Assembly: GCF_018350175.1 (NCBI RefSeq) | Contig: NC_058368.1 | Span: forward strand, 68,202,001-68,266,000 | Direction of reading: 5' to 3' | DNA from: Felis catus | Lineage: Eukaryota | DNA length: 64,000 nt | In this document: positions 731 to 63,700 of the stretch, piece by piece | Layout of the letters: each line of letters starts with the position of its first letter | How positions within the stretch are numbered: position 1 is the first letter of the stretch | The notes under the pieces: generated by a model | The model's input: the letters and a program-made list of their open reading frames with translations, nothing else | The model's database searches: none | Told to the model about the DNA's origin: nothing | Made by a program: the position numbers and the translations under genes

Positions 731-743
731 ATAAGATGTTGGA

Positions 744-2027
744 TGCTCAACGTCGCTCCTCATCAGGGAAATACAAATCAAAACCACACTCAGATATCAC
801 CTCACGCCAGTCAGAGTGGCCAAAATGAACAAATCAGGAGACTATAGATGCTGGAGAGGATGTGGAGACACAAGAACCCTCTTGCACTGTTGGTGGGAAT
901 GCAAACTGGTGCAGCTGCTCTAGAAAACAGTGTGGAGATTCCTCAAAAAATTAAAAATAGACCTACCCTATGACCCAGCAGTAGCACTGCTAGGAATTTA
1001 CCCAAGGGATATAGGAGTACTGATGCATAGGGGCACTTGTACCCCAATGTTTATAGCAGCACTTTCAACAATAGCCAAATTATGGAGAGAGCCTAAATGT
1101 CCATCAACTGATGAATGGATAAAGAAATTGTGGTTTATATACACAATGGAATACTACGTGGCAATGAGAAAGAATGAAATATGGCCCTTTGTAGCAATGT
1201 GGATGGAACTGGAGAGTGTTATGCTAAGTGAAATAAGCCATACAGAGAAAGACGGATACCATATGGTTTCACTCTTATGTGGATCCTGAGAAACTTAACA
1301 GGAACCCATGGGGGAGGGTGTGGGGGGCCGGGCCCGGTGCCAGGCTGAGACCGGGTCGAGCAATGTTCCCCGTTGACTCAAGCCAACCTGGTGGTTACCC
1401 CTCCCATTCCCCCACTTTCAAGGGCATACGAAAGCCTTGTCAAGGCTGAGAGTTAATTCCTGAAGCCTGTGGTCTGCAGGTGTTGGCAGTAATGCTACCT
1501 CCCTTTTTCTACCCCTAGTCAGATAGACACAAACATGGGAACTGTGTTTTGCTAGCAATCTATCAACAAGGTCTTGTGACCTGTTCAGAAAGTTCACAAG
1601 GTATACAGAACTAAATGTTTTGGCTGGCAGTGATCATGTGAAACCTGTTTATTCTTAGAATGACCTGATCCATAAGAGTCTTATATTATAAAAGATTGTG
1701 TACAGCAACAATAAAGCCGTCACTTGGGCCATCAGCCCAGGTGTTCCCAAACTTTCTCTTCTCTCTTTTTTCTTGCATTCCCCTACCCTCAGGACCCTGA
1801 CCTCAGTGTTTGTCGCGCCGGTCGCGACAGGAGGGGAAGGAAAAAAAAAAAGAGGTTAGAGTAGGAGAGAGCCAAAGCATAAGAGACTCTTAAAAACTGA
1901 GAACAAACTGAAGGCTGATGGGGGGTGGGAGGGCTGGTGATGGGTATTGAGGAGAGCACCTGTTAGGATGAGCACTGGGTGTTGTATGGAAACCAATTTG
2001 ACAATAAATTTCATATATTTATAAAAA
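744..2027 (+). mobile_element. 5'-truncated feline-type LINE-1 (L1_Fc-like): ORF2 C-terminus + 3'UTR, interrupted by an LTR
   Basis: Translates as the ORF2 end ([18 protein letters not shown] zinc knuckle; ...PYDPAVALLGIYP...KLWFIYTMEYY...) with one TAG at 921-923; 3'UTR ends acaataaatttcatat + A-rich tail; TSD atgttgga at 736-743 and 2028-2035. Confidence 0.95.
1319..1829 (+). mobile_element. Solo LTR of a class II (betaretrovirus-like) endogenous retrovirus
   Basis: TG...CA termini; perfect 6-bp TSD GGAGGG (1313-1318, 1830-1835); the L1 3'UTR resumes exactly after it; TATAAAA 1687-1693; AATAAA 1710-1715. Confidence 0.9.
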
Positions 2028-34295: not shown

Positions 34296-35539
34296 ATTTA
34301 TTTATTTTAATATGAAATTGGTTTCTATACAACACCTAGTGCTCATCCCAACAGGTGCCCTCCTCAATGCCCATCACCCACTTTCCCCTCCCTCCCACCC
34401 CCCATCAACCCTCAGTTTATTCTCAGTTTTTAAGAGTCTGTTGTGGTTTGGCTCCCTCCCTCTCTAACTTTTTTTTTCCTTCCCCTCCCCCATGGTCTTC
34501 TGTTAAGTTTCTCAGGATCCACATAAGAGTGAAAACATATGGTATCTGTCTTTCTCTGCCTGACTTATTTCACTTAGCATAGCACTCTCCAGTTTCATCC
34601 ACGTTGCTGCAAAAGGCCATATTTCATTCTTTCTCGTTGCCAAGTAGTATTCCATTGTGTATATAAACCATAACTTCTTTATCCATTCATCAGTTGATGG
34701 ACATTTAGGCTCTTTCCATAATTTGGCTATTGTTGAAAGTGCTGCTGGGGCATCTGGGTGGCTCAGTCAGTTAAGCGGCTGACTTCAGCTTAGGTCATGA
34801 TCTTGTGGTCCGTGAGTTCGAGCCCCGCGTCGGGCTCTGTGCTGACAGCTCAGAGCCTGGAGCCTGTTTCAGATTCTGTGTCTCCCTCTCTCTGACCCTC
34901 CCCCATTCATGCTCTGTCTCTCTCTATCTCAAAAATAAATAAACGTTAAAAAAAATAGAGAAAGTGCTGCTATAAACATTGGGGTACAAGTGCCCCTGTG
35001 CATCAGCACTCCTGTATCCCTTGGGTAAATTCCTAGCAGTGCTATTGCTGGGTCATAGGGTAGATCTATTTTTAATTTCTTGAGGAACCTCCACATTGTT
35101 TTCCAGAATGGCTGCACCAGTTTGCATTCCCACCAACAGTGCAAGAGGGTTCCCGTTTCTCCACGTCCTCTCCAGCATCAATAGTTTCCTGATTTGTTCA
35201 TTTTAGCCCCTCTGACTGGCGTGAGGTGGTATCTCCGTGTGGTTTTGATATGTATTTCCCTGATGAGGAGTGACGTTGAGCATCTTTTCATGTGCCTGTT
35301 GGCCATCTGGATGTTTTCTTTAAAGAAGTGTCTATTCATGTCTTGTGCCCATTTCTTCACTGGATTATTTGTTTTTCAGGTGTGGAGTTTGGTGAGTTCT
35401 TTATAGATTTTGTATACTAGCCCTTTATCCGATATGTCATTTGCAAATATCTTTTCCCATTGTCTGTCGCCTTTTAGTTTTGTTGATTGTTTCCTTTGCA
35501 GTGTAGAAGATTTTATCTTCATGAGATCCCAATTGTCCA
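34296..35539 (-). mobile_element. 5'-truncated feline-type LINE-1 (L1_Fc-like), interrupted by a SINE
   Basis: Minus-strand ORFs give [11 protein letters not shown]...RYHLTPVR and [11 protein letters not shown]...[13 protein letters not shown]; same family as 744-2027; TSD taaaatga(t/g)taa(c/t)tttt 34279-34295 / 35540-35556. Confidence 0.95.
34747..34959 (+). mobile_element. CAN-SINE nested in L1 ORF2
   Basis: Perfect 12-bp TSD gaaagtgctgct 34735-34746 / 34960-34971 made of L1 sequence. Confidence 0.97.
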
Positions 35540-60780: not shown

Positions 60781-63700
60781 TTTGAATAATAGAAATGTAA
60801 TGTCATTGCCTTTCCTTGGGCTAAATGTATCAAGAAAACTCAATAATTAAATAATAGAAAGTATAGTAGGTCAGAGTATCATGGTCTCATGGCTGTCTAG
60901 TGCAGGACATGGGCCACATGTGTGACAGTAGTGACACCTGCATGGTGTTGACACAGGCCACTTAGGACATCTCTTGCCACAGGGAATATGCTATGAGCTG
61001 TGAGAGTATCTCATAGACCTCCCAATGGCCACTGGAAACAATGGTGCTTTTCTAGTTCCTGACCTTGTCCCTTTGTCCCAGCTATTCTGATACTCTGCCT
61101 GTCAGGTCAACCCTTTCCCTAGTTCCTGACTCTCTTTTCATCTAAGGGAGCAATCATCTCTCCAAGAAGAGGTTAGGCCTTCTGGAGCACTGGGAAAGGT
61201 AGTGCTGGGGCATGCTAGATGACTCTGCTGTGTGAAAAATGGATTTTCTGAGTGTAAAGGCATCCCCCACCTGACCCCCACTCAAACGTAAGTAATTCAC
61301 TCCCTGACAGTCACCACATCAGCGAATCCCCATCTGTGGGCTGAGGCCCAGGAAGAAATGCACAAACACACATTTTCTTTCCTTTCCACCCTCCTTTCTT
61401 TTCCTTCCCCTCTGTCTGCCCACCTATCTCTTGCTTCCTGGTTCTTTGAGATATGGCTCCATTTTGATGTATTTGGTACACACAATAAAAGGTTCTGATG
61501 ATGGTTAAACTAACCATTGTCACCTTGTATTGAATTGTTGAGATATAGGCTTATGGGTTGAAAGCATCTCACCCATTTGTTCTTGATTATACAGTGCATT
61601 AGAAAAAAAGTTTTGTGTGCTTCTTTGAAAGAAAGATTGAATTCAAACAGGCAAGTCGTAATCTGTGAATTTTGCCTCTAGTCTTTGAAGACCTTTGTGG
61701 GGGTATGGGTTCTGAAAATATTGCTGCAGTTAGCAACGGGACTCTTAATTACTCTAAAACTGAATTTAAAAAGGCATTGCTGGCCATCTTTGAGCTCATA
61801 TTTGGTAGCTCTTTAGAAACGCCATAAAAACAAGCGGCACTGATAAAGGAGGTAAGGAAGGCTTTCTTATGGTGTCACAAAGTTCAATCACATATAATAA
61901 TCACATCATAATAATCATCAGTGAATTGACAACCAAACTCTCATGGTTGACCGTTTGCTCTGCAAGAAAATGGAAATGCTTTTAAAAAAAAACATATTTT
62001 TAAAATGTCAATACTATTTGGGGTCTTGTGTTTGCTAAAAGCTTTTCTGAGGTAAGTGTGAAGGCAGGAGAATCTCACTTCATGACTCATTCTGGTCTTG
62101 AACCAAGAAGGTGGGAAGACCTGATTGTCTATTCGCCGTGTGTCTGATTCTTACCTCCCACCCCTTCCCAAGGAAACTGAGGCTGAAGAGTAGGCAACGT
62201 AGGAAATCTTCTGAAATTTTTGTTTTTAATTTTTGTTCAATCAAATATTCTGATTGAAATGAAGGAAATCTATACCGAATCAGACTCTCTATGGTTCATT
62301 TTTCATCATGAATGTAAGAACACACATCCCATCTTTATCTCTTGTACGCATACTTAGATGTACCTGTTCCTCAAGCCATCATTATTAGAAAACAGCCCGG
62401 AGTTACCGTGTCTGCAGCGATTATTTAATTTGACAAGGGCAGTACCAATTTTTCCCTACAAGAGTTTACATTACAAAATGTTGAAGAAGGAACTTCTTGG
62501 CCGACTTGGCCGCTTCACCAGCAATTTTTGTTATTTTTAAGGTGTTTTAGAAGTGAGGTAAAAGCTCACCTGAGCCCTTAGGACACTGTTAAGTTTATAT
62601 CTTCTCTCTGCCAGTATCTGTCAAGGGAGAATAAAATGAGCATCTTAGTTCCTTACTTTATGCTTTTCAGTGCAACTGAATTTCTCAATCTCACACACTT
62701 ATGATGACAGGGATTGGAGACACTGAACCCCAGAGAGTGGGTGGGTCATCCCCTTTCCTTGAGCAGGCTAAATCAGGGGGCATTGCAGATGTGTTAGAAA
62801 ATGTGCTTCAAAGACTAGTTCAACAGGGAATACCAAAGTGTTTGGAGCAAACAAGATTATTGCTTATCTCCGGGAAGTTGAATGTCTTAGAAAACATTAT
62901 TATCGATGTTCAGAACGTCATTGAATTCTTACTCAAAACTTGTAAATGGGCTGCCAAGGGGAGGGTTGCTGATTTTTGTTTAGGTTTTTTTTCATTCGTT
63001 ATCTATCCTCAAATAGTTAGACTTCTTGGAGGCCTATATAAAACACTAGTCCTTTCATTTAAAAGACTGTTAGAAGACTGTCTGTTATACCAGAAATGAG
63101 CTGTCTGCAGGAAAATTCTGATCGTATGCTGGAGAATATCAATGCTAGCGCTGAGAAAAACCAGGCATTATGGATAAAGAATGAAATGAAACTCCACCAA
63201 GTACACACAGATCTTTTCCCTTCCATATTTGCCACATACGTATTTTGATCCTGGGAAAGAAGGAGAGACAGGCAGACAACATGATGATAGAAGGTAAAGA
63301 TGTGTCTTCCAACCTTTATTTTCCTGTTAACCTTCTATCATGCTGTTTTAGAGCTCTCTACAGATTCTGAAACCAGATCCCACATCTCAAGAACAAAGGA
63401 GTGGGCTGAACACAGTTCATGCTAGTAAGAGATGTCACTCATTTTCATTGTTATTATGATCACCACAGTTATAATTCAGAATCTGCGGTTGCCAAGAGGA
63501 AATTAGATAATGTATAAAACATAGCAATAGATATAATCCCCTCTAGAGCTTCCAATTTAGACTCCTATTTCTGTGCCTTTGTTCATAACCTGAGAGAATT
63601 ATGAAGATTGTCTTTGTCCTACCTTTGAAAACACATTATTAAAAATAACTCGTGTGAGTTTTTAAAAAAGGCAAGCAAAACAAATTACAGTGATGGGACT

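Follow-up and report, generated by a model that had tools for sequence, protein, structure and literature searches.

The element at 1319-1829 of the plus strand is a solo long terminal repeat (LTR) that was inserted into a pre-existing L1 with duplication of 6 bp of the target. It lies in a window of 64,000 nucleotides of Felis catus DNA (contig NC_058368.1, positions 68,202,001 to 68,266,000). From its anatomy and its single target-site duplication (TSD) the LTR is very probably of class II, with an MMTV/JSRV/ASLV-type layout. The element and its host L1 were delimited as follows, in window coordinates.

733 to 743 (+): left copy of the probable TSD of the host L1 itself, 11 bp, matching 2025-2035 with 1 mismatch
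742 to ∼2024 (+): host L1, 5'-truncated, split by the LTR
742 to 1318 (+): left part of the host L1, comprising the end of ORF2 (by translation, with one in-frame stop) and the start of the 3'UTR, 92-93% identical to the second L1 at 34483-35284 (-)
1313 to 1318 (+): left TSD of the LTR, GGAGGG
1319 to 1829 (+): solo LTR, 511 bp, TG..CA, delimited by the exact TSD, the empty site and a multi-copy family with a common 3' end
1830 to 1835 (+): right TSD of the LTR, GGAGGG
1836 to 2024 (+): remainder of the host L1, 3'UTR and short A-rich tail, by alignment with the second L1 copy

A sequence-only reading had described a 511-bp TG..CA element flanked by a perfect GGAGGG duplication, and both the coordinates and the exact 6-bp repeat were found as claimed. 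Duplication lengths of 4 to 9 bp were tried at 1319-1829 and 6 alone fitted. By chance, an exact 6-bp flank match was obtained for 53 of 160,970 random TG..CA pairs placed 300-800 bp apart in the window. The empty site was provided by a second L1 copy in the window (34306-35284, minus strand, 92-93% identical), which is without the LTR. The left part of the host L1 was identical to this copy over 34483-35284 at 300/325 and 246/264 positions. When the two flanks were aligned to it separately, the end of the left flank and the start of the right flank shared six bases of the copy and no other sequence was absent, and the L1 3'UTR is thus seamless without the element, as had been read from the letters. 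Since flank matches of 6 bp do arise by chance, the empty site is stronger proof of insertion than the TSD match. Many L1 contigs from three public DNA runs also skip the element; the sides of these joints (≤45 bases) lie within L1, and paralogous L1s are therefore a possible source.

One whole LTR with TG..CA ends, a matching duplication of the 4-6 bp type, a clean empty site and membership of a multi-copy family together uphold the earlier call of a retroviral solo LTR. No second copy of the LTR was found within the 64-kb window. The second L1 is itself interrupted at ∼34747-34959, with a ∼12-bp duplication, by an insert that we take to be a carnivore-type SINE. An (ACA)12 microsatellite is located at 2184-2219, just downstream of the host L1.

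Within the LTR the following signals were placed.

1687 to 1693 (+): TATAAAA, putative TATA box
1710 to 1715 (+): AATAAA, poly(A) signal, predicted to lie in U3 from the TATA spacing
1716 to 1734 (+): predicted short R, ending at 1731 or 1734, from spacing
1721 to 1743 (+): predicted 9-pair hairpin over the R/U5 border with candidate CA sites in the loop, from the fold of 1716-1829
1752 to 1774 (+): T/C-rich tract 3' of the poly(A) site, putative downstream element
1811 to 1829 (+): terminal 7-bp inverted repeat in U5, with 5 CpGs

TATA, AATAAA and a downstream T-rich tract were found in the order of a retroviral LTR. The TATA hexamer (1687) and AATAAA (1710) are separated by 17 nt, as had been noted; TATA followed by AATAAA occurs at 4 places in the window on both strands, and a 17-nt gap at the LTR only. 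No difference was listed at either motif in four public runs at a threshold of 10% of depth. Position 1716 is 29 nt past TATA and the candidate CA ends at 1731 or 1734 are 16 or 19 nt further on. The spacing agrees with a very short R preceded by a U3 poly(A) signal, a trait that is shared by RSV and AMV and missing in MPMV. Folding of 1716-1829 gave two predicted hairpins in R-U5 at z -2.0, a weak result that was equalled by 6 of 200 shuffles. In some family members 9-10 extra bases are present at 1741-1742, close to the R/U5 border and inside the arm that lies on the 3' side of the predicted hairpin. Of 12 CpGs in the LTR, 10 fall within the first 62 and last 29 bases, in line with the observation that CpGs are kept at both ends, and the CpG observed/expected ratio is 0.40 in the LTR, compared with 0.25 in the window as a whole and 0.19 in the host L1. 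The longest plus-strand frames in the LTR are ≤55 aa.

Duplications of 6 bp are given for ASLV, HTLV-1, HERV-K and MMTV, that is for alpha-, beta- and deltaretroviruses, those of 4 bp for MoMLV, PERV and XMRV, and those of 5 bp for Rev-A and lentiviruses, in the available part of PMC4422553. Reported R lengths are 11-15 nt for MMTV, 21 nt for RSV and ∼70 nt for gamma ERVs (PMC3601003 and PMC12789967, from the sections available). The poly(A) signal lies within U3 in RSV, AMV, MMTV, JSRV, BLV and HTLV and within R in MLV and the betaretrovirus MPMV (available sections of PMC12789967). A CCAAT box is conserved in gamma LTRs according to the accessible text of PMC2664473; none was found in this LTR. 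Three traits favour class II: the 6-bp TSD, seen at one insertion only, the gap of 17 nt from TATA to AATAAA and a missing CCAAT box. Deltaretroviruses have AATAAA upstream of TATA and an R of >200 nt, and here TATA comes first with 114 nt to the end of the LTR. The element had been called betaretrovirus-like on its 6-bp TSD and a poly(A) signal just upstream of a very short predicted R. The class II-like part of that call, resting on the 6-bp TSD and the 17-nt gap, holds, but beta itself was an overstatement, since the traits are common to alpha- and deltaretroviruses and MPMV differs; a 6-bp TSD and a short-R layout cannot separate beta from alpha-like lineages.

Assignment to a class I (gamma-like) or class III family with an atypical 6-bp duplication is quite unlikely. 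Class I predominates among felid ERVs in the literature as far as it was available, and Table 2 of PMC4313119, in the part accessible, lists 6-bp TSDs for RD-114-related proviruses, which contradicts the 4-bp TSD that had been put forward as established for RD-114. In the same table 4 of the 5 listed 6-bp duplications begin with TG and may include two LTR-terminal letters. The ends of the LTR fit the degenerate gamma att motif (6/8 and 4/4) as well as the HML motif (8/11 and 5/6), and the comparison does not discriminate. The spacing speaks against both classes, with 17 nt between TATA and AATAAA vs the gamma R of ∼70 nt and, in the partial sources, ∼180 bp between the boxes in class III. Against class I there are also the missing CCAAT box and gamma TSDs of 4-5 bp in large data sets (PMC4422553, part available), 4 bp being typical (PMC4643047). 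An alternative within class II would place the LTR in an alpha/beta-intermediate felid clade or make it a non-autonomous class II retroelement. Such a variant of the favoured explanation, which we rate as possible at best, suits the predicted short R, the predicted U3 poly(A) signal and the 6-bp TSD, all as compatible with ASLV as with MMTV/JSRV, and Mata et al. reported a felid clade that branches off before alpha and beta, without statistical support in the portion available (PMC4373062). It is weakened by the LTR 5' end, which equals the first 8 letters of the HML att motif, and by the naming of felid class II families mostly as beta (FcERV beta1-4; PMC4133949, as far as accessible).

Collapse of near-identical LTRs by assemblers is a known class of artefact, and a provirus whose two LTRs had been merged in this way would resemble a solo LTR. 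Among the listed contig pieces none spans the stretch, as this explanation would allow. The copy is 1-2% from its kin, however, and a second LTR of it would probably not be identical to the first. In another ERV family in cat and tiger, solo LTRs exceed proviruses by ∼10:1 (PMC4643047, Table 1). Collapse is therefore considered very improbable.

The favoured history, insertion of a class II ERV into the L1 followed by LTR-LTR recombination to a solo LTR, is likely. A class II ERV with an MMTV/JSRV/ASLV-type LTR would have integrated into the G-rich 3'UTR of the resident truncated L1, its integrase presumably cutting with the 6-bp stagger that the observed duplication records. LTR-LTR recombination would then have deleted the internal genes so that a single LTR stayed behind, as the complete LTR between matching TSDs suggests. 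U3 would be ∼397 bp long, R ∼16-19 nt and U5 ∼95 bp. With a predicted start ∼29 nt past TATA and just behind AATAAA, the poly(A) signal would work only in the 3' LTR. The window copy is most likely neutral; no sign of co-option was found, and no Pfam family was matched by any of 7 window frames tested.

Betaretroviruses have a tRNA-Lys PBS after the 5' LTR, a dUTPase in pro and a beta-type gag-pro-pol-env arrangement. No PBS, PPT, gag, pol or env was seen for this family. Protein-based locus scans confirmed 0/598, 0/9 and 0/87 pattern matches, and the viral, metagenome and prokaryote collections yielded no internal region. An 18-base LTR motif was found at 5 IMG/VR loci, none of them similar beyond the motif, and these loci were rejected as relatives and taken as chance matches. 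A 23-base LTR motif gave 0 matches in metagenome, prokaryote-genome and viral contigs.

The 5' part of U3 varies in copy number within the family and is delimited as follows.

1319 to 1410 (+): U3 5' unit of ∼92-93 bp, single in the window copy and three in tandem in another member (P0001)

The 42-residue plus-strand frame of the LTR start was used as a phmmer query against 1.84 billion proteins and returned one real match, P0001 (E 5e-37), which had been called as an ORF from an ENA metagenome contig of 543 bases. P0001 contains three tandem units of 31 aa, which are 74-84% alike at the amino-acid level and each identical to the window frame at 22-24 of 27 residues; past the third unit it follows the window frame with 13/15 identical. 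P0001 is not a protein but a translation of the DNA of another LTR copy with the first ∼93 bp triplicated. Bins at 1346-1441 were also deeper than the middle of the LTR in runs X1 and X3. The first 46 residues of P0001 do not derive from the window locus, and in the other frames of this segment an env-like hydrophobic or transmembrane stretch did no better than shuffled sequences (387 and 58 of 1000). P0001 matched 0 Pfam families, and two further protein searches returned P0001 alone. P0002, a pomegranate repeat protein, was rejected as a family member and taken as a chance match.

Parts of the LTR were found in 20 of 24 listed public sequencing runs. These come from 18 studies, and besides 9 organism labels they include metagenomes labelled feline, gut and mammal. 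The best 14 of these runs shared 0.49-0.53 of the 47 words of the LTR, and none of the 20 exceeded 0.53. Four of the 24 were compared with 1250-2180, three of DNA (X1, X2 and X3) and one of RNA (X15), and the whole LTR was covered in all four. Contig evidence was taken from 32 listed of ∼127,800 pieces. Seven listed pieces reach the last 10 bases of the LTR: 4 end their match at 1829 and 1 at 1830 with other sequence beyond, the sixth departs from the match at 1823 but extends further, and the seventh finishes at 1822. As independent copies stop matching at ∼1829, the 3' terminus is fixed, and the family is a dispersed one with a common terminus. For the 5' end there are just two indications, the empty site and the point where unit one of P0001 begins; record 9 of run X15 has 59 extra letters before 1322, possibly a previous U3 unit, and was for this reason not used as a 5' boundary. 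The RNA contigs of X15 cover the LTR at low depth and, being contigs, say nothing on expression or R borders.

Two interior variants were seen in X1. The deeper one (1434) has 12 differences over ∼180 bases and the other, at a depth of 712, has 3 over 148, so that LTRs about 93% and 98% alike to the window LTR are present. Contigs of single loci in X1 have a depth of 14-25, giving an interior to single-locus ratio of ∼90-150; the ratio in X3 is 87. Depth is no copy number, and these ratios suggest ∼100 copies per genome as an order of magnitude. A single-copy element, which would have told against an LTR, was thus not what the public runs contained. The family is widespread among felids on the basis of the 9 organism labels, and about half of the LTR words under these labels speaks against a lineage-specific family. 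It comprises at least 2 variants and a variable-number U3 repeat of ∼93 bp.

In X1, 5 places of the LTR have another letter in ≥94% of depth, a divergence of ∼1%. The word share of 0.53 (95% interval 0.38-0.68) corresponds to ∼10 scattered differences or ∼2%. With 1.8e-9 per year, the felid rate applied in PMC4643047, these values would put the insertion at no more than ∼5-11 My, and with other rates from the literature at 0.8-8.5 My. The age is an upper bound because the species of the window is perhaps absent from the runs and some differences may be those of subfamilies. The insertion is younger than the host L1 and ∼1-2% from its kin, and was thus correctly read as relatively recent.

The junction of the host L1 tail with its unique flank is present in run X1, and in organism A the junction of the window L1 tail with this flank shows 4 differences in 189. 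The unique flank is covered in X1 and not in X2, X3 or X15, a coverage gap that proves nothing. None of the listed pieces links the LTR to the window locus. With no run above 0.53 of the words, and with organism A having the L1-flank junction without a higher share, it is conceivable, if doubtful, that the LTR represents a felid class II lineage undescribed at the level of the LTR or full provirus, perhaps of the alpha/beta-intermediate clade. Such a lineage would have a 93-bp variable U3 enhancer repeat and two subfamilies, would have inserted after the cat lineages split, and would have left an insertion in the window that is species-specific or polymorphic.

Felid class II ERVs as such are already in print, and the element is a real but ordinary retroviral fossil, probably of this class. 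The families FcERV beta1-beta4 were described by Song et al. 2013 (as cited in the available part of PMC4133949), and Mata et al. 2015 reported three felid class II clades in at least 5 species of four lineages (PMC4373062, portion available). Like these groups, the LTR family is widespread, being found under 9 organism labels; the published groups are defined on pro-pol in the text available, whereas the window family is known from its LTR and can be likened to them by description only. The layouts of MMTV and JSRV are alike in the U3 poly(A) signal and very short R, both predicted for the window LTR, and MMTV also in the 6-bp TSD, but MMTV has a long U3 with a sag ORF and AGTAAA, in contrast to the 511 bp, AATAAA and no plus-strand frame >55 aa of the window LTR; only layouts are compared here, from partial sources. 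ASLV/RSV share the 6-bp TSD and the predicted U3 poly(A) signal and have an R of 21 nt in the accessible text, and as these are avian viruses the comparison is again one of layout. FcERV gamma6 / ERV1-1_FCa (PMC4643047) is similarly felid-wide and mostly present as solo LTRs, with ∼15 My of insertion and many cat- or tiger-specific sites for gamma6, but is gamma-type and has ∼700-800 copies vs roughly 100 for the window family.

No paper describing this LTR was found in a search of mainly open-access literature. The youngest Repbase cat LTR families in a 2011 listing are ERV1 types, and families 1-5% diverged are not covered in the available part of that source (PMC3183009); cats are unmentioned in the accessible portion of PMC12584738. 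The family may well already be catalogued in Repbase or Dfam. The single locus is of little weight: L1s often harbour solo LTRs, and no link of the window LTR to a gene was found. Its use is as a probe, felid class II ERVs being known mainly from pro-pol fragments: the LTR would allow retrieval of the family, its linking to a PBS and a pol clade, dating of its activity and phylogenetic presence/absence markers across cats. Through its variable U3 repeat the family would also provide, on a small scale, a natural test of how LTR enhancers evolve.

A comparison with Rfam gave 5 weak miRNA matches, which were rejected because all fell far below gathering scores. Elsewhere in the window, two adjacent stop-free frames of 139 and 61 aa at 62680-63248 (+) are less repeat-like than the other long frames. 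Neither had a Pfam match and the first (139 aa) had no Atlas match; they are possibly chance frames or a pseudogene.
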